From a bacterium (GTDB taxonomy: Bacteria > Patescibacteriota > Minisyncoccia > Phycocordibacterales > Phycocordibacteraceae), in NCBI GenBank assembly GCA_021802705.1, contig JAJZRL010000002.1, forward strand, positions 25,913 through 89,912: a stretch of DNA of 64,000 bases, in the 5' to 3' direction. Shown in pieces: positions 330-35,822 of this stretch. The translations under genes were made by a program, and so were the position numbers. Below the pieces are notes generated by a model. The model was not told the origin of the DNA. It did no database searches and saw only the letters and a list, made by a program, of their open reading frames with translations. Position 1 is the first letter of the stretch. Every line of letters starts with the position of its first letter.

Positions 330-893
330 CTAGAGTCCCGAAGCGAGGATACCTCGATTGATACGGGCAACGTACCCGGCACGTTCCCGTGCGATATCGG
401 CAAGGAGCGGACGGGTGAAATCAGAGGTTTTGCCAGGTATGCCTCCCGTATCGAGACCGAGGGTAGCGAGCAACCGGAGCACCGCGAGCACCTCAGCGGC
501 ATCATGGTCTTCTTCCGGCAATACCGCGAGCGCTTCGAAAAATCCTGCGAGTACCGGGAAAAGCTCGGGATCCTGAGCTTCGCCTGCAAACCGCAAAAAG
601 AGGCCGGACACGCGACCGGCCCGTTCGCGCGCCACGGGAGTGCGCATCCGCACGAACCAATTCTCAAAAGGAATCGCGCCCGCGAGCCTCCACCCCCCCT
701 TCCCGCGTACGAGAACGAATCCGCTTTCGACGAAAGTCGAAAGCGCGCCCGCGAGTTTCGCGCCAGAGAGGCGCGCGCCCTGCGCGCTCGCACGCACGAG
801 ACCGAGATCTTGTGTCATGAGCGTCATCAAGACGTTCGCTTCTCCGAAGAACGAACGCGCGAGCACGATCCCCCGCGTTTCGTACCTATGCCA
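330..893 (-). CDS. recO: DNA repair protein RecO (short form)
   Basis: C-terminal 187 aa of ORF 330..1112: MWHRYETRGIVLARSFFGEANVLMTLMTQDLGLVRASAQGARLSGAK... matches RecO N-terminal OB-fold pattern. Start chosen at the internal Met that avoids overlap with ileS. Confidence 0.55.
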   Translation of the reverse strand, partial: WHRYETRGIVLARSFFGEANVLMTLMTQDLGLVRASAQGARLSGAKLAGALSTFVESGFVLVRGKGGWRLAGAIPFENWFVRMRTPVARERAGRVSGLFLRFAGEAQDPELFPVLAGFFEALAVLPEEDHDAAEVLAVLRLLATLGLDTGGIPGKTSDFTRPLLADIARERAGYVARINRGILASGL

Positions 894-3800
894 CATCGCG
901 GACAAGATCGAAGCGGACGCGTCCTGTCGACAGCTCGACTTCATACGCGCCTTCGGTACGGATCTCGACGCGCACCGTATCCCTCGGCAGATAAGATTCG
1001 CTCTTGCGGGCTTCCGCAACGGCCCGTGCCATTTCGCGCTCGTCGCCTTCCTTGACGAGCTCGGGCGTGAGGTCGGTGTCGAGCTCGATAGATGCATGGC
1101 CGGTCGAAACATGTTTGACGTTCACTTCTTCCGCGAGAATCTGCGCGAGCTCCTTCTCGAGAAGGTCCGGTACGAGAAGCTTTGCAAGCGGTTGCCGCAC
1201 CCTGATGCCCGCTTTCTGGCGCAGCTGGAGCACATCGGAAGCGAGCGCCCGAACGCGCTCCATGCCGGAGAGGAGCGCGGCATCAGGCCACGCACGGATA
1301 AAGCGTCTCGTTTTCCCCGCAAAGGAATCGGACGGCCAATGGGCGAGGTGCACGCTTATCGTATCGTCCTCGTAGCGAACGCGATTGAAAACCTCTTCGG
1401 CGAGAAACGGCATGACCGGCGCGATAATCACCGAGAATTCGCGAAGCACGTGTCGGAGCGTCGCGAGCGCCCGCTCCTTATCCTTCTCATCGGAACCCTT
1501 GATCCTCTCGCGCGAACGACGGACATACCACGTCGAGAGATCTTCTATGAAGTCCCGCATGGGGCGCGTCCCGCGCGGGATATCGTACCGATCAAACGCG
1601 CTCGTTACGTCACGCACGAGCATGGAGAGGCGGAGCAGTATCCAACGGTCGAGCGGGTGTTCGCTCTCGATGGAAGGCGCGGCCGGCGGCCCCTCCTTCG
1701 CGAAAAGCGTGTAGAAAGAGAGGACGTTCCGCAGCATGTTCACCACCCGCGCATGCGCCTCGCGCACGTCTTCGTCGCGAAACACGAGATCTTCGGCCTG
1801 CATGATGACCGAAGACATGAGGTAGTAGCGGAACGCATCCGCTCCGTAGCGATCGAAGAGATAGAGAGGATCCGTATAATTCCCCTTGCTTTTGGAGATC
1901 TTCGCGCCATCGACAGCAAGCACGTTTCCGGTCGTCACGACATGACGGAAAGCGAGCCGGTCAAAAAGCTCGACGCTCATGGCATGGAGATAGTAAAACC
2001 ACGCCCGTGTCTGGCCGATATACTCCGCGACGAAATCGCCCGGCGAACGCTTCTCGAACTCACCCCGATTTTCAAAGGGATAATGGTATTCGGCAAAAGG
2101 CATCGCGCCGGATTCGACCCAGCAGTCGACGACTTCCGGAATACGTTTCAGCGCTTTCCCGTGTTCGTCCCTAAGCTCGAGCCGGTCAATGTATGGAAGA
2201 TGATAGTCGAGCTCGTAGTCGGCATTATGCGGCAAAGGAACGAAATCGAGCGCGAGCGTTTCTCCGGTCTTGAAATCTGATGTATGCACGATGTCCGCGA
2301 ACCCTTGCGTGTCGGCTCCGCGCGCGACGGCAAGGAGCGATTCGAGGCCTATCCCGTGCGTCACGATAAGCACGCGTTTCCCGCTCTCTGCCGCCTCGAT
2401 CTCATAGAGGAAGTCGCCGAACCGCCGTTTCGCTTCCTTGTAGCTTTCGCCGCCCGGCATAGCGTCAGTGAACGGCGACTCCTGAGCATCGCGATACGCG
2501 ACGAAATCCGCGAGCGGCTTCCCGGAGAGCGCCCCGAAATCAAGCTCTCGCAGCCGCTCGTCGAAGCGCAGGGCGGAATGCGGGATGCCGAGTATGGAAG
2601 CGACGACTTCGGCAGTCTCTTTCGTCCTCATGAACGGCGAAACGTAGATGATATCGATGCCCGTGTGCGAGAGCGTATGGGCGGCCTGGCGCACCTCCGC
2701 TTTCCCGCGCTCGGTGAGGTTATTGCTCAAGGGATCAGAGCTTACGATATTCTTGAGATTCTTTTCGCTCTCCCCGTGCCGCATCACGAAATACGTGTTT
2801 CCGCTTCTCTTCGTATGCGCTTTGAGCTCTTCGAGGGAGCCGATAATCGTCACGTTCCCTTCCTGGTCCTTCCATATGGGAAGCGGGCTCGCCCAGAAAC
2901 GATTGCGAGAAATCGTCCAATCCGGCGCGCTCTCGATAATATGCCGGAAACGGCCTTCTTTCAGGTGCTTCGGTATCCAGTCGATCTTTTCGTTTTCAGC
3001 AAGCATGCGCTTTTTAACCGACTGGATATCGATAAACCAGCTTGCGACGGCGTTATAGATGAGCGGCGTGCCGCAACGATAACAGTGCGGGTACGAGTGC
3101 GTGTGCGGCGCCTTGGCGAAAAACAGTCCGCGATCCTCAAGATCCTCTATGATCTTCGCGTTCGCCTTCCTGAGATATTCCCCGCGCAAAAACTCTGGAA
3201 CGTCGTCAGTGTAGGTACCGTTCGGATTCAAGAGCTGCACCATCGGCAGACCGTGCTTTTTGCCGAGATTAAAGTCGTCCTCGCCATACATCGGCGCGAT
3301 GTGCACGATGCCGGTGCCGTCTTCCGTCGTAACGAAATCGCCGGAACAGACGCTCCAGGTCCTATCATTTCTTTGCGCGATAATCGCGTCTATCCGATAC
3401 GGGGGTTCGTACTGCACGAATCCTCCTTTCGCATCCGTATGCGCCAACTCGCTTCCTTCGAAGGTCCGCTGCGGATCTTTCAATCCATAATCCGCCGCTC
3501 TCGCCTCGGCGAGGATGAGCGTCTCGCCGTCGTGCGCGTATGCGCCATAGCGGACTTCCGGATTGACCGCGAGCGCGACGTTACCCGGCAGCGTCCACGG
3601 CGTCGTCGTCCATGCGAGGAAATAAACGTCTCCCGCAAGCCCGAGGTTTCCGGGATCCGCCATCCTGAACTTGACCGTTACCGCCTCCTCGTCGATGTTT
3701 TTATACGTATTATCCATCGCGATCTCGGCCTTCGCCAAGGGCGTCTCGCAATGCGGGCAGTACATGAGCACCTTCCGTCCTTCATAGAGCCGGCCTTTCT

Positions 3801-4305
3801 TGTGGATCTCCTTCAGAGCCCACCACACGCTCTCGATGAAAGAGTTGTCCATCGTCTTGTACGAATTGTCGAAATCGACCCAGCGCCCGATACGTTCGAT
3901 ATACCGTTTCCAATCACGCACGTATGCGAGAACCATCTCCCGCGCGGTCTCGTTGAACTTTTCAATGCCAAGCGCAAGGATGTCCTTCTTGTTTTTGAGC
4001 CCGAGCGTTTTCTCGACTATCGACTCGATAGGAAGCCCGTGCGTATCCCACCCCCACCGACGACGGACGCGATACCCGCGCATCGTCTTATACCGCGGAA
4101 TGACATCCTTCGATATGGAAGAGAGCAGCGAGCCGGTATGCGGCAATCCGGTGGCGAACGGCGGGCCGTCGTAAAAGACGAATTCGCCTTTCGGTGCCTT
4201 CTTTTGGAGCGATTTTTCGAAAATATCGTTCTTTTTCCAAAAAAGGAGCGTTTCCTCCTCCTTCATTGCGACCTCCGACTTCGGTTCAGGACCATCCTTG
4301 CTCAT
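886..4305 (-). CDS. ileS: isoleucyl-tRNA synthetase with an inserted histidine-phosphatase-like domain
   Basis: 1139 aa with class I aaRS motifs: PFATGLPHTGS (HIGH-like), WTISRNRFWASPLPIW, KISKSKGN (KMSKS). Strong IleRS-like N-terminus (LLFWKKNDIFEKS). Residues ~500-700 carry an RHG phosphatase signature. Confidence 0.9.
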   Translation of the reverse strand: MSKDGPEPKSEVAMKEEETLLFWKKNDIFEKSLQKKAPKGEFVFYDGPPFATGLPHTGSLLSSISKDVIPRYKTMRGYRVRRRWGWDTHGLPIESIVEKTLGLKNKKDILALGIEKFNETAREMVLAYVRDWKRYIERIGRWVDFDNSYKTMDNSFIESVWWALKEIHKKGRLYEGRKVLMYCPHCETPLAKAEIAMDNTYKNIDEEAVTVKFRMADPGNLGLAGDVYFLAWTTTPWTLPGNVALAVNPEVRYGAYAHDGETLILAEARAADYGLKDPQRTFEGSELAHTDAKGGFVQYEPPYRIDAIIAQRNDRTWSVCSGDFVTTEDGTGIVHIAPMYGEDDFNLGKKHGLPMVQLLNPNGTYTDDVPEFLRGEYLRKANAKIIEDLEDRGLFFAKAPHTHSYPHCYRCGTPLIYNAVASWFIDIQSVKKRMLAENEKIDWIPKHLKEGRFRHIIESAPDWTISRNRFWASPLPIWKDQEGNVTIIGSLEELKAHTKRSGNTYFVMRHGESEKNLKNIVSSDPLSNNLTERGKAEVRQAAHTLSHTGIDIIYVSPFMRTKETAEVVASILGIPHSALRFDERLRELDFGALSGKPLADFVAYRDAQESPFTDAMPGGESYKEAKRRFGDFLYEIEAAESGKRVLIVTHGIGLESLLAVARGADTQGFADIVHTSDFKTGETLALDFVPLPHNADYELDYHLPYIDRLELRDEHGKALKRIPEVVDCWVESGAMPFAEYHYPFENRGEFEKRSPGDFVAEYIGQTRAWFYYLHAMSVELFDRLAFRHVVTTGNVLAVDGAKISKSKGNYTDPLYLFDRYGADAFRYYLMSSVIMQAEDLVFRDEDVREAHARVVNMLRNVLSFYTLFAKEGPPAAPSIESEHPLDRWILLRLSMLVRDVTSAFDRYDIPRGTRPMRDFIEDLSTWYVRRSRERIKGSDEKDKERALATLRHVLREFSVIIAPVMPFLAEEVFNRVRYEDDTISVHLAHWPSDSFAGKTRRFIRAWPDAALLSGMERVRALASDVLQLRQKAGIRVRQPLAKLLVPDLLEKELAQILAEEVNVKHVSTGHASIELDTDLTPELVKEGDEREMARAVAEARKSESYLPRDTVRVEIRTEGAYEVELSTGRVRFDLVRDVA

Positions 4306-4335
4306 CTTCGACAGTGTACCGCTTTCTCACATCTA

Positions 4336-4377
4336 AATAAAGAAAAACGGCTACAGGAATGTAATGTCCTGTAGCCG
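4336..4377 (-). terminator. rho-independent terminator for the 4391..4777 gene
   Basis: Perfect 11-bp stem cggctacagga/tcctgtagccg with a 7-nt loop (4348..4377). It is followed on the minus strand by a T-run (plus-strand aaataaagaaaaa). Confidence 0.5.
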
Positions 4378-4390
4378 TGTGTTCATTTGA

Positions 4391-4777
4391 TCACGCCCTC
4401 ATCGCCAAAGACGGTCGTAAGGGTCGGGCGTATTTCTTCTCGTGCTCCTTGCGAGAACGAGGGGCGCCGGATGTCATGACTCCTTCAGCGTACGCGATGA
4501 CATAACGAGGGATGCGATATCTCGGGTCGGCAACAACGCCTTGCATCTTGAAAAGGAGGAACCTTTTCACGTCGGCCTTGATGGCTTCCATGAACGCTTC
4601 CGCATCATCTCCGAAGAGCAGTTTTGCGTTTCGCGCCCTTCGCTTCTCGTTCTCTGCCAGCGCCGCGTATGCGAAAAACCTCTCGATCGAGCAGCCGCAC
4701 TTCCTCGCCGCCTCGCTCACGCAACGAACGGAACTGCATCCGTTCGATTTTTTCTTTGAAGACATAACGCCCTCCAA
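4391..4777 (-). CDS. hypothetical small protein with an N-terminal 4-Cys cluster
   Basis: 128 aa ORF MEGVMSSKKKSNGCSSVRCVSEAARKCGCSIE... with C-x4-C-x9-C-x-C; it has its own terminator. No recognisable family. Confidence 0.4.
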   Translation of the reverse strand: MEGVMSSKKKSNGCSSVRCVSEAARKCGCSIERFFAYAALAENEKRRARNAKLLFGDDAEAFMEAIKADVKRFLLFKMQGVVADPRYRIPRYVIAYAEGVMTSGAPRSRKEHEKKYARPLRPSLAMRA

Positions 4778-4842: not shown

Positions 4843-6501
4843 TCACATCGTTTTCGGGGTGGGGATACCGAGAAGCGCGAGACCGTTTGTCATCGTGTTG
4901 GCGAATGCGCGGACAAGCATGAGCTTATGCGCCTCATGGTCGCCGCCCACGATACGCTCTTTCGCATAAAAAGCGTTCCACTCCCCCGCCGCTTCGATGA
5001 TGTAGTTCGCAAGCAGGTTCGGTGCAAACTCGCGCGCGGCCCGCGCGGCGACTTCCGGAAAATGCAGAAGGACGCGTTCAAGGAGATACGGTTCACGCGA
5101 AGGATCGGCCGGTATCGCGCTTTTCGCGCTTTCCGGCGCGCGTGCGAGCACCGAACGGGCGCGCACGAGCGCATATTGCAGGTAAGGTCCGGAATCGCCC
5201 TCGAGCGAAAGCGACCTTTCCGGATCGAAAACGATATCTTGTCCGGGCGCTTGCCGCAGGATCATGTACTTTATGGCGCCGATGGCTACTTGCTCGGCAA
5301 CGAGCGGATCGGGGTTCTTTTCGCCCGCTCTCGCGATAACGCTGCGGATGAAGTCTTCGGCGGCGATGATATTGCCTTCGCGCGAACTCATCTTGCCGGA
5401 CGTAAGCTTCAGGAATCCGTTTGCGACATGCTTCGTCTTCGCGGCGACAAGCGGGGCGCTGTCGCGAAGCGCCGCGAGCACCGTCTTAAACCGGCCTGTC
5501 TGCTCGCTGCCGGAGACGATGATGCTCGCGTCTGAAGCCCACCGCTCTTCTTTGAGGAACGCGAGGCCGATGTCTTTCGCTTCGTAGGTAGGCGTCCCAT
5601 GCGAGGTGATGAATACCATCGTGTCTACGCCTTTCGCTTCGCCATCATAGATGACGGCGCCATCGCTCTCTTTGAACACACCCTTCGCGAGGCCGTCGCG
5701 TACGACACGCATGCCGATCTCGACCGTATCGCTGTCAAAGAATTCGAAATCGAAGCGGGTACCGAGCACGCGCCAGATGCGCCGGAACTCTTCGGTCGAC
5801 ACATCGCGCCCGCGGCGCCAAAGCTCCGCAAGAGCGCCATCTGAACCGGCATAGAGGGCTTGATTGAGTGAGTCTATCTCTTCTTTCGCGCGCGGATCGC
5901 TCTCGTATGCGGTTGAACCTTCGATATAAGCAGTACCGATTTGCTGTGCCGAAACCGGCTCCGCAATACCCTTCTTACGGAGTCCCCAGAGCGCTTTCGC
6001 GACGTTAGGGCCGATATCGCCTCCGAAAGTCGCGCGCGCAACGGTCGCGCCACAATTTTCGATAAGCCGCGACAGCGCTTCGCCGATGATCGTCCCGACG
6101 AGGTGTCCGATATGCATTTCCTTGAAGGCGTTCGGATTCGAATACTCTATGAAAACGCGCTTGCCTTTTTCGGCAGTATTCCTCCCCCACGTTTCGCCCT
6201 GTGCATCCGCTTCGGCGACAGCGAGCGTCACGGCATTGCGGGAAAGCGTGATATTCACGAAACCGGGACCTGCCGCTTCGATCTTCGCGGCCGCAGCGCC
6301 GAGCGCGCTCGCAAGGGAGCGCGCGAGCTCGTCCGCGAGCTCGCGCGGACTCCTGCCGATCTGCTTTGCCGAGACGAGCGCCGCGTTGGTCGCATAGTCG
6401 CCGTACGCGGCGTCGCCCGGCCGCTCGACGGTAAACGCGACGCCTTCTGCGCCGAGCTTCGCAAGCGCGCTTCCTACCGCTTCTCGTATGTTGCCTTCCA
6501 T
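4843..6501 (-). CDS. argS: arginyl-tRNA synthetase
   Basis: NPNAFKEMHIGHLVGT (HIGH), KMSSR (KMSK variant), and overall ArgRS architecture. Start set at MEGNIREAV (ORF extends to 6594). Confidence 0.9.
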   Translation of the reverse strand: MEGNIREAVGSALAKLGAEGVAFTVERPGDAAYGDYATNAALVSAKQIGRSPRELADELARSLASALGAAAAKIEAAGPGFVNITLSRNAVTLAVAEADAQGETWGRNTAEKGKRVFIEYSNPNAFKEMHIGHLVGTIIGEALSRLIENCGATVARATFGGDIGPNVAKALWGLRKKGIAEPVSAQQIGTAYIEGSTAYESDPRAKEEIDSLNQALYAGSDGALAELWRRGRDVSTEEFRRIWRVLGTRFDFEFFDSDTVEIGMRVVRDGLAKGVFKESDGAVIYDGEAKGVDTMVFITSHGTPTYEAKDIGLAFLKEERWASDASIIVSGSEQTGRFKTVLAALRDSAPLVAAKTKHVANGFLKLTSGKMSSREGNIIAAEDFIRSVIARAGEKNPDPLVAEQVAIGAIKYMILRQAPGQDIVFDPERSLSLEGDSGPYLQYALVRARSVLARAPESAKSAIPADPSREPYLLERVLLHFPEVAARAAREFAPNLLANYIIEAAGEWNAFYAKERIVGGDHEAHKLMLVRAFANTMTNGLALLGIPTPKTM

Positions 6502-6565
6502 ACCGACGAGTGTAGCAGAAATAAGAAAAAGCCGGCGCGCAAAAGCGCGCCGGACTATGGCACCG

Positions 6566-6901
6566 TCATCTCGAATGCGCAGCGTGATGCACACTTGCTT
6601 CGCATCGAGGAGACGGGGCTGGAACGTCGTTGTGTATCGGGCATTCGTTGCTTATGAGCGCGACTCCGTTTTCTGGTTCCGGACACTGGCAGTCGCACGT
6701 TCGCGTACAGGTGCATTCGTCGGATTTCTCCTTGTTGTCGATCGCTTCGAGAACGACACATGGATACATCCTTCCGTCCGCCCCTTCGTCGTAAGTAACT
6801 CTTGCATTTATCTCAATAGCGAGACGGCCGTTTTCGTATATCAATGCCTTCGCGGGTTTGCTAGACGTTGCCGCTTCTTGCTGAATCTTGACTTCCAGCA
6901 T
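6566..6901 (-). CDS. hypothetical Cys-rich small protein
   Basis: Internal Met of ORF 6566..7075: MLEVKIQQEAATSSKPAKALIYENGRLAIEINARVTYDEGADGRMYPCVVLEAIDNKEKSDECTCTRTCDCQCPEPENG...ECPIHNDVP. No known family recognised. Confidence 0.4.
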   Translation of the reverse strand: MLEVKIQQEAATSSKPAKALIYENGRLAIEINARVTYDEGADGRMYPCVVLEAIDNKEKSDECTCTRTCDCQCPEPENGVALISNECPIHNDVPAPSPRCEASVHHAAHSR

Positions 6902-35354: not shown

Positions 35355-35822
35355 AAACGGGCTTATTATAAGCCCACCTGTTTGTACGATTTCTTGATGG
35401 TCTGGTTCTTTCTGGTTGCGGTAATATGCAGCTTCGAGAGCCAAAAGTGCTTCGAAAATCGGAGCTGGAACGGATTTTAATAACCCCCGTCCGGTCACTC
35501 AAAATGGTCACAGAAGAATATCGTGTAGTGCCGTTTGAGGTCGGATGAGGATTTCCTGCGCAATATCCACGCTCAGCTACCGCTGGTCTTCAAGACGAAG
35601 TAACAGGACTTTTGAATGGCGCTCGAAAGGAGTAAGATACAGGGGTGCGATATGGCCTAAACCTGGCTTCGGCTGGGCATGGCTACAAAACCAATCACGG
35701 TAGAAAGCTCCTCGTCAGGAGCAACCGTGATTGGTCATGTCGGGAAACTGGCATGGGTAGCGAAAGCTATCGCCTGGCGGGGAGCTTTTTGCATTGCTCC
35801 TTGTCGTTTCTTTCAAGACGAA

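Follow-up and report, generated by a model that had tools for sequence, protein, structure and literature searches.

A histidine-phosphatase domain within isoleucyl-tRNA synthetase

The window considered here, by which we mean the whole 64,000-nucleotide (nt) stretch of contig JAJZRL010000002.1 (assembly GCA_021802705.1, positions 25,913 to 89,912), contains on its minus strand an ileS gene whose product, isoleucyl-tRNA synthetase (IleRS), harbors a histidine-phosphatase domain in frame (Table 1). On the evidence below, we consider it likely that this gene encodes a bifunctional IleRS of a Parcubacteria-group (Patescibacteria) bacterium, in which an active phosphatase is partnered with the synthetase. 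The open reading frame (ORF), free of internal stops, scored 789 bits with the NCBIfam ileS model TIGR00392 (cut-off 621.4), and profile matches of the IleRS body to PDB chains (1ILE, 673 bits; Priestia megaterium IleRS2 8C8U, 644; IleRS1 8C9E, 315) placed it nearer to IleRS2 than to IleRS1 and hence in the type-2 class, with a weak match of the C-terminal family DUF5915 (25.8 bits vs. a cut-off of 27). The CP1 editing domain is present, as judged by matches of PDB chains 1WK8, 1UDZ and 1UE0 to residues (aa) 201-407 and by the editing-region motif WTTTPWTLPGN. Among 75 relatives, the HxGS form of the HIGH signature seen in the window was found in 6, all in one clade, the G/AxHH swap in 36 and the canonical HxGH in about 30; the swap gives mupirocin hyper-resistance in IleRS2 (PMC10485003), a paper that does not mention the HxGS variant. 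The full-length AlphaFold2 (AF2) model was confident (mean pLDDT 91.5, pTM 0.87), and the IleRS part would otherwise appear capable of normal charging of tRNA-Ile.

Within this protein, the Pfam family tRNA-synt_1 (402.6 bits) is divided into two stretches by a match to His_Phos_1 that lies far above the cut-off for that family (21.7 bits), as expected from an earlier sequence-only reading of the window, which had proposed a branch-1 histidine phosphatase embedded in IleRS. In the alignment to T. thermophilus 1ILE, query aa 14-499 correspond to chain residues 12-481 and query aa 699-994 to 488-790, leaving aa 500-698 unmatched; the roughly 200 extra residues counted in that reading stand in place of about 6 in 1ILE, and a hidden Markov model (HMM) built from relatives of the insert matched aa 495-718. 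All five motifs it had quoted (the two IleRS flanks, RHG, the second Arg and the C-terminal His) are present; its span of 2290-2800 covered the Pfam core but not the whole domain, which includes the last strand and the PLPHN junction.

The insert carries the entire catalytic set of the superfamily, comprising the RHG motif, a second arginine, a second histidine and an acidic proton donor. In full-length relatives from 75 species, R509, H510, G511, R560, R628 and H650 were each retained in 75/75, and N516 and E587 in 74/75 each, the sole exception at E587 being Asp; in an independent sample of 71 cluster representatives, R509 together with H510 was found in 69/69, R560 in 70/71, H650 in 71/71 and E587 in 66/71, with Asp in four more. 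Because these active-site residues are near-invariant at a mean pairwise identity of only 39% among the inserts of the 75 species, the cassette is predicted to be catalytically alive. At the level of sequence, this conservation shows an intact active site kept by purifying selection, in support of the potentially active phosphatase of the sequence-only reading; its alternative of a degenerate domain is wrong for the window gene and applies to one rare relative (P0216, see below).

The domain is also predicted to fold independently. Modelled as a fragment with AF2, it gave a pLDDT >90 and a pTM of 0.83, and within the full-length model its pLDDT was again >90, with values of 87-97 throughout the cassette including the linkers. 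Foldseek matched the insert to small phosphatases, namely PspA (TM-score 0.79 at 2.1 A), Rv2419c (0.77) and PhoE (0.76), with root-mean-square deviations of 2.1-2.7 A, and the PDB profile search gave PhoE (103 bits), PspA (96) and CobC (89). Profile score, catalytic motifs and alpha/beta fold all agree with a branch-1 histidine phosphatase of PF00300. The NCBIfam equivalog models for the small phosphatases were all missed (CobC 73.9 vs. 162.9, PspA 58.2 vs. 350, GpmB 59 vs. 261, SixA 35.4 vs. 74.5); judging from these scores, the insert is within the histidine phosphatase superfamily and outside every characterised enzyme family. Given the generic family resemblance and the label 'probable phosphoglycerate mutase' that some sources attach to fragments, the insert could be taken for the cofactor-dependent phosphoglycerate mutase (dPGM) of glycolysis, fused to IleRS. 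We hold this to be extremely improbable, as evidenced by: 1) scores well short of the respective models (TIGR01258 38.1 vs. 81.7, dPGM_arch NF038349 76.7 vs. 225, PRK01295 59.2 vs. 316); 2) true mutases in the PDB that align via their N-terminal half only (profile positions ~18-127); and 3) a domain of ~195 aa without the mutase-specific insertions and tail. A true phosphoglycerate mutase was ruled out on these profile scores and partial alignments.

In a species-level scan with one genome per species, in which the count of insert-bearing genomes is a lower bound, at least 157 species-representative genomes had a full-length relative of the insert, and 80 loci retained from these (designated L) were analyzed. 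The named carriers among the matches listed all belong to the Patescibacteria/Parcubacteria (Kaiser-, Nomura-, Zambryski-, Taylor-, Adler- and Wolfebacteria, Paceibacterota), which bears out the lineage-specific insertion foreseen in the sequence-only reading. That reading had named a mis-join in the assembly as a possible refutation, and an assembly or binning artefact or a pseudogene was considered accordingly. We found no support for it, the sole broken copy being the frameshifted draft L001, and its probability is vanishingly small: the ORF in the window is single and intact, the same in-frame architecture lies inside a single uninterrupted ORF of at least 1000 aa in 75/80 independent loci from many projects, the fold prediction is confident, and GC content at third codon positions (GC3) in the window insert is host-like (0.742 vs. 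0.704 for the host gene, z = 1.1). Recurrence in relatives and this host-like GC3 ruled out an assembly chimera. In L001 (4242-7787, GCA_037975565.1), a syntenic insert-bearing ileS is called as three genes with apparent frameshifts, which looks like a draft-assembly error.

Table 1. Positions of ileS, its inserted phosphatase cassette and the adjoining features in the window
Feature	Window (nt)	Protein (aa)	Strand	Basis or remark
ileS, type-2 (eukaryote-like) isoleucyl-tRNA synthetase with insert	886..4305		minus	1139 aa ORF, TIGR00392
HIGH signature as H-T-G-S, fourth His to Ser	4129..4140	56-59	minus	motif search
N-side flank: WTISRNRFWASPLPIW, first half of cysteine-less zinc-knuckle hairpin, helix EELKAHT	2812..2919		minus	
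Motif WTISRNRFWASPLPIW	2872-2919	463-478	minus	motif search
Whole histidine-phosphatase cassette, linker KRSGN to PLPHNADYE	2212..2811	~499-698	minus	1ILE alignment, HMM, model
Pfam His_Phos_1 (PF00300) match	2290..2790	506-672	minus	113.5 bits, E 1.3e-32
Motif TYFVMRHGESEKN	2758-2796	504-516	minus	motif search
RHG motif: R509, nucleophile H510, G511	2773..2781	509-511	minus	invariant in relatives
Motif VSPFMRTKETAE	2608-2643	555-566	minus	motif search
R560, second phosphate-binding Arg (RTKETA motif)	2626..2628	560	minus	invariant in full-length relatives
E587, presumed general acid (RLRE motif)	2545..2547	587	minus	conserved in relatives, rarely Asp
Motif RVLIVTHGIGLES	2338-2376	644-656	minus	motif search
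H650, second catalytic His (THG motif)	2356..2358	650	minus	invariant in relatives
C-side flank: DYHLPYID motif, second half of degenerate knuckle, VVDCWVESGAMPF re-entering Rossmann fold	2095..2211		minus	
Motif VVDCWVESGAMPF	2095-2133	725-737	minus	motif search
KMSKS signature, form KISKS	1888..1902		minus	motif search
recO-like gene, downstream neighbour	330..1112		minus	RecO_N 42 bits
ORF between argS and ileS	4391-4777	128 aa	minus	no Pfam match
argS (arginyl-tRNA synthetase), upstream neighbour	4843..6594		minus	Pfam
Antisense ORF opposite ileS	640-2280	546 aa	plus	no Pfam match
Antisense ORF opposite ileS	2284-4374	696 aa	plus	no Pfam match
Antisense ORF opposite ileS	2648-3058		plus	no Pfam match

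The insertion site, a free-standing form and exchange of the cassette

The insert sits on the tip of a hairpin, the zinc knuckle, which closes the connective-peptide region just ahead of the DxWxESG motif with which the chain re-enters the Rossmann fold; in the full-length model, the N-side flank forms strands at 477-479 and 485-487 and a helix at 491-497. Since residues 513-632 make up the second half of the catalytic core in P. megaterium IleRS2 (PMC10485003), we place the knuckle at the C-terminal end of the connective-peptide region, and it probably corresponds to the element named CP3 in PMC11685878, an assignment that we infer. At the equivalent site, the flanks of 1ILE read VCQACGK... 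and ...ELACACGG. The corresponding N-side CxxC and C-side CxC, which bracket the insert, are retained in 24/75 insert-bearing relatives, all four cysteines are gone in 48/75, the window included (2812-2871, 2134-2211), and insert-less relatives have a knuckle of 51-79 residues at the site, in keeping with the short zinc-binding element that the sequence-only reading had assigned to canonical IleRS at this position.

The states of this site were surveyed by an insert-unbiased search of 1.84 billion representatives, with the part of IleRS downstream of the insert as query. Among the 79 matches with both flanking motifs, the length of the site was bimodal, 26 being short and 53 long, and a full phosphatase was found in 51 of the 53 long sites. 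P0023 is 79% identical to the window in its flanks and has no insert, just a 14-residue linker (HMKPGADLPKNARG). In P0216 (L086 3353-6703, GCA_029782575.1), RHG has become LHG and the second His is replaced by Gln, with a Pfam score for the phosphatase of 32 bits covering the first third only; this insert is, as predicted from these substitutions, a catalytically dead copy, and at least one lineage would thus be able to retain the insert in a non-catalytic form. In yet another lineage, the IleRS P0186 carries a NUDIX domain (PF00293, 72.5 bits) at aa 533-648, just past the second cysteine pair. This protein was recovered on three contigs, two of them from different sequencing runs (L082 8001-11381, L083 5467-8847), and the search found no further cluster of Nudix-bearing IleRS besides P0186. 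With both a phosphatase and a Nudix domain at the knuckle, we regard the hairpin as a permissive insertion hot spot.

These data also bear on a non-catalytic role, in which the domain would tune IleRS as a ligand sensor or a structural support, for example one that stabilises the knuckle in place of the lost zinc. Loss of all four knuckle cysteines in nearly two thirds of the insert-bearing enzymes, upkeep of the dead copy in the P0216 lineage and the high-confidence linkers of the full-length model, suggestive of a defined placement, are in its favor. We nonetheless find such a role very improbable, in that practically every one of ~150 sequences preserves the nucleophile, the acid, the second histidine and both arginines in spite of a low overall identity, zinc ligands and insert occur together in 24/75, and the domain occurs also as a free protein.

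The closest non-fused relatives of the insert form a family of 204-226 aa proteins, 54-76% identical among themselves, with complete catalytic residues in 12/12. They start with ...RGNTYYVLRHGEAEQN and end with ...F.F.P..VN.DFE, the counterparts in the inserts being SGNTYFVMRHGE and DFVPLPHNADYE. They are 35-48% identical to the inserted cassettes vs. 26-28% to generic histidine phosphatases, and the inserted cassettes nearest to them are those of the window and L002. In L087, the stand-alone phosphatase gene is directly upstream of ileS with a 4-nt overlap, the downstream product beginning as the N-terminus of IleRS; in L090, L091 and a contig from ENA, it is directly upstream of a complete IleRS (948, 1011 and 1005 aa, respectively) without PF00300, in the same ArgRS...IleRS-RecO synteny as in the window. 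The insert-less IleRS bodies of this lineage share 65-72% identity with L048, L003 and L002, which bear the insert, and those of L090 and L091 retain an intact four-cysteine knuckle. When metagenomes were scanned for longer contigs with the stand-alone gene, a single, distant match was obtained. The stand-alone gene is probably co-transcribed with the insert-less ileS in this sister lineage, and its existence proves the predicted enzyme able to act as a separate polypeptide. The same enzyme is thus found either inside IleRS, as in the window and at least 157 genomes, or as a separate adjacent gene, as in L087, L090, L091 and the ENA contig, and by Rosetta-stone logic this implies a functional link.

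Within the fused genes, body and insert have discordant histories, as evidenced by: 1) pairwise identities that correlate between the N- and C-terminal halves of the body with a Spearman coefficient of 0.78 vs. 0.15-0.20 between body and insert; 2) pairs such as L009/L072, with 78% identity in the body and 38-41% in the insert, and L017/L043, with 49-52% in the body and 77-78% in the insert; 3) bootstrap support of 300/300 for the window body with L065 and 299/300 for the window insert with L002, the L002 body in turn grouping with L003 (300/300); and 4) a maximum-likelihood two-breakpoint scan that placed an anomalous block at window aa 513-689 in all 7 divergent pairs (log-likelihood ratio 33-70), the more-similar block in L017/L043 spanning aa 495-710, with nothing comparable in the control pairs. 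This discordance, together with block boundaries that match the domain, leads us to conclude that cassettes have been exchanged laterally; and as swaps took place between bodies ~50% identical, there would be little co-adaptation between cassette and body. The ratio of non-synonymous divergence (dN) in the insert to that in the body spans 0.38-4.2. In about one third of the genes, the GC3 of the insert deviates by more than 2 standard deviations from that of the body and is mostly lower (e.g. 0.30 vs. 0.47 in L019); L017, L043, L019, L047, L010, L033 and L050 are among these genes, and the inserts of L017 and L043 share a GC3 of 0.29-0.30 in host genes of 0.47 and 0.53, which suggests that the cassettes with low GC3 came from lower-GC donors. 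There is also a vertical signal, the nearest neighbour of an insert being in the same body clade in 38/68 cases vs. 13.9 expected. As we read these comparisons, the cassette has for the most part been inherited vertically, while diverging faster and being replaced repeatedly. The mobile-like insertion offered as an alternative in the sequence-only reading thus holds in so far as the domain has moved between IleRS lineages, but not in the sense of a transposon, the junctions being without meaningful direct or inverted repeats (chance matches of 11-23 nt only). The ratio of non-synonymous to synonymous divergence (dN/dS) was uninformative on positive selection, with synonymous sites saturated in every pair (proportion of synonymous differences, pS, 0.6-0.8).

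An intein or other self-splicing element had been considered in view of the conserved ...PHN junction and the mobile behaviour. It was rejected on the following grounds: Pfam gave no Hint or intein hit, PHN is followed in relatives by A, G, R, K, E or D and not by Cys, Ser or Thr, and the segment folds as a histidine phosphatase in the models.

Function of the domain and comparison with known systems

Our favored explanation, and in our view the probable one given the sequence comparisons, is that the cassette is an active modular phosphatase partnered with IleRS. Hydrolysis of phosphomonoesters via a phospho-histidine is established chemistry of the histidine-phosphatase superfamily. The domain would accordingly dephosphorylate a phosphomonoester by way of phospho-His510, with R509, R560, R628 and H650 holding the phosphate and E587 serving as the acid. 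It would be a dedicated partner of IleRS and not a random passenger, the sister lineage encoding the same subfamily upstream of ileS, and the module seems to be self-contained, in that it is predicted to fold alone, exists free, can be deleted and is swapped between IleRS bodies. As substrate we would guess first at a phosphomonoester of the nucleotide type, either generated at IleRS or delivered to it; a nucleotide by-product or the phosphorylated end of a tRNA would be examples. An aminoacyl-adenylate, one of the substrates considered in the sequence-only reading, is unlikely, because it is not a phosphomonoester. The partnership with ileS is a genetic one, seen directly in the genomes, and any mechanism coupling the two enzymes is one that we infer.

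Several observations weigh against this explanation. The insert is hypervariable at aa 592-618 and 653-682, which in this superfamily border the way into the active site, and with entrance regions as variable as these, the sequences reveal no conserved specificity pocket. With a median isoelectric point of 5.65, and a net charge of -8 in the window, the domain is acidic, which argues against extensive direct binding of RNA, although a terminal nucleotide might still enter. In more distant relatives that lack the insert (L084, L085), a search for a phosphatase gene out to 10 kb from ileS found none, and the partnership is therefore not universal; where the genes are adjacent, adjacency could be a historical leftover of fusion or fission as opposed to an arrangement maintained by selection.

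Some of these same features would suit a passenger, i.e. an ordinary broad-specificity metabolic phosphatase, with no functional link to IleRS, that has settled in a permissive surface hairpin of an essential and constitutively expressed gene and is retained solely because the cell requires its activity. The acidity of the domain, its poorly conserved specificity regions, its ability to be deleted and exchanged as a self-contained module across divergent IleRS bodies, the small-molecule substrates of its closest solved relatives and the tolerance of an unrelated Nudix domain in the same knuckle are all compatible with this idea. However, a mere passenger seems unlikely to us, since the unfused subfamily is found immediately upstream of ileS in at least 4 independent contigs, one with the 4-nt overlap, the linkage persists in two genetic arrangements, which is Rosetta-stone evidence of a functional link, and those matches bearing a tRNA synthetase whose sequence was read were all IleRS.

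A further proposal is that the phosphatase, like the Nudix domain that P0186 carries at this site, is a cis-acting antidote in a molecular conflict, in which a tethered hydrolase reverses a phosphate-containing block on isoleucine charging imposed by toxins, phages or competitors that modify tRNA-Ile or IleRS; this we rate as quite unlikely. The block could be a toxSAS-type 3'-(pyro)phosphate on the tRNA CCA end or a HipA-type phosphorylation of the KMSKS loop of the synthetase. Toxins of the toxSAS group pyrophosphorylate the tRNA 3'-CCA and can be tRNA-specific (10.1101/2021.04.30.441581; PMC11559606), and HipA and HipT phosphorylate GltX and TrpS (PMC6581861). Conflict-like evolution is apparent in the polymorphism of presence and absence among close relatives, in the lateral exchange and in the hypervariable surroundings of an invariant catalytic core; an alternative Nudix pyrophosphohydrolase occupies the same site in another lineage, and the G/AxHH swap, which has been tied to hyper-resistance against mupirocin, is frequent among these IleRS (PMC10485003). 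If the proposal were true, hypervariability, polymorphism and lateral exchange would amount to the footprint of an arms race on a housekeeping enzyme. Against it, neither the window nor the surroundings of the loci yielded a toxin, tRNA binding is disfavoured by the acidic surface, the saturated synonymous sites leave positive selection unreadable, and modularity explains exchange neutrally as well. In addition, we know of no member of the histidine-phosphatase superfamily that acts on tRNA ends.

In branch, size (~200 aa) and catalytic set, the insert resembles PhoE/YhfR of Geobacillus stearothermophilus (1EBB, 1H2E), the phosphoserine phosphatase PspA (4IJ5/4IJ6) and the alpha-ribazole phosphatase CobC (6NRU). 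These enzymes are free-standing with defined small-molecule roles, whereas the insert lies inside IleRS or is encoded adjacent to it, scores below every NCBIfam equivalog cut-off and has hypervariable cap regions. The bifunctional RNase H/acid phosphatase PRK07238, which we take to be of the Rv2228c/SCO2299 type, likewise has a domain of the same subtype on a nucleic-acid enzyme and, at 80.7 bits, outscores the other NCBIfam phosphatase models on the insert, but this score is far under the cut-off of 326, and PRK07238 is a C-terminal fusion to another partner enzyme, in contrast to the internal insert. On the synthetase side, the type-2 enzymes of T. thermophilus (1ILE) and P. megaterium (8C8U) share the same body, with HUP/Rossmann core, CP1 editing and type-2 C-terminal domains; they differ in having ~6 residues in a short zinc knuckle where the window has a 200-residue enzyme, and HxGH in place of HTGS. 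A curated precedent for an embedded enzyme in IleRS is ileS_w_GNAT (NCBIfam NF040702), with a GNAT acetyltransferase domain, but there the inserted family and, judging by profile coordinates, the position are different, and the window protein scored 327 vs. a cut-off of 1999. Like CP1 and the other connective-peptide insertions of class Ia enzymes, the insert exemplifies the tolerance of the class I Rossmann fold for whole domains, and a 2026 survey lists synthetases among the preferred hosts of domain insertion (PMC13114784). CP1, in contrast to this lineage-specific and exchangeable insert with phosphoryl-transfer chemistry, is an ancient and universal domain, with the aminoacyl ester as its target.

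Neither domain family is new, and public databases contain thousands of such sequences, labelled isoleucine-tRNA ligase; database fragments of insert-bearing IleRS are also labelled 'broad specificity phosphatase PhoE'. The architecture had been taken as undescribed in the sequence-only reading, and our literature search found no description of an IleRS with an internal histidine phosphatase or Nudix domain, of the ileS-adjacent stand-alone form or of the exchange, recent papers on IleRS structure and evolution making no mention of a phosphatase insert. Aminoacyl-tRNA synthetases are among the best-studied enzymes, and their accessory domains usually prove to have a genuine biological role, such as in editing, signalling or complex assembly. 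For the class I synthetases, a phosphoryl-transfer enzyme embedded in the catalytic region of a bacterial member would be a new accessory activity; here, much of the Parcubacteria preserves it with its active site intact, and it is genetically linked to ileS when unfused. The natural variants, be they fused, adjacent, deleted, catalytically dead or Nudix-substituted, make the case directly testable. Domain-precise lateral exchange in an essential gene offers a clean example of modular protein evolution in minimal genomes and may inform how these episymbionts keep translation running.

Surroundings of ileS in the window

By Pfam, the neighbours of ileS in the window are housekeeping genes, namely argS, recO and a dCTP deaminase gene; the listed start of the recO-like ORF overlaps the end of ileS, and its true start is probably internal. 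The argS...ileS synteny of the window recurs in L001, L090, L091 and the ENA contig, where recO again is the downstream neighbour. With the HMM of the insert, no second copy of the phosphatase was detected in the window or within 6 kb at the 80 fused loci. The 128-aa ORF between argS and ileS occupies the position that the stand-alone phosphatase gene has in the sister lineage, and the same HMM finds no similarity in it. Between argS and the phosphatase gene, L090 (4996-6570) and L091 (2052-5217) carry a Pif1-family helicase gene, and L091 also has genes for a PemK-type toxin and a HAD-family hydrolase, none of which is present in the window. The long ORFs antisense to ileS are most simply explained as a by-product of GC-rich codon usage. 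There are nine tRNA genes in the window, tRNA-Ile not being among them, and a full-length LOOT RNA (Rfam RF03000, 94 bits) at 35654-35771 on the plus strand adjoins a tRNA-Lys gene.

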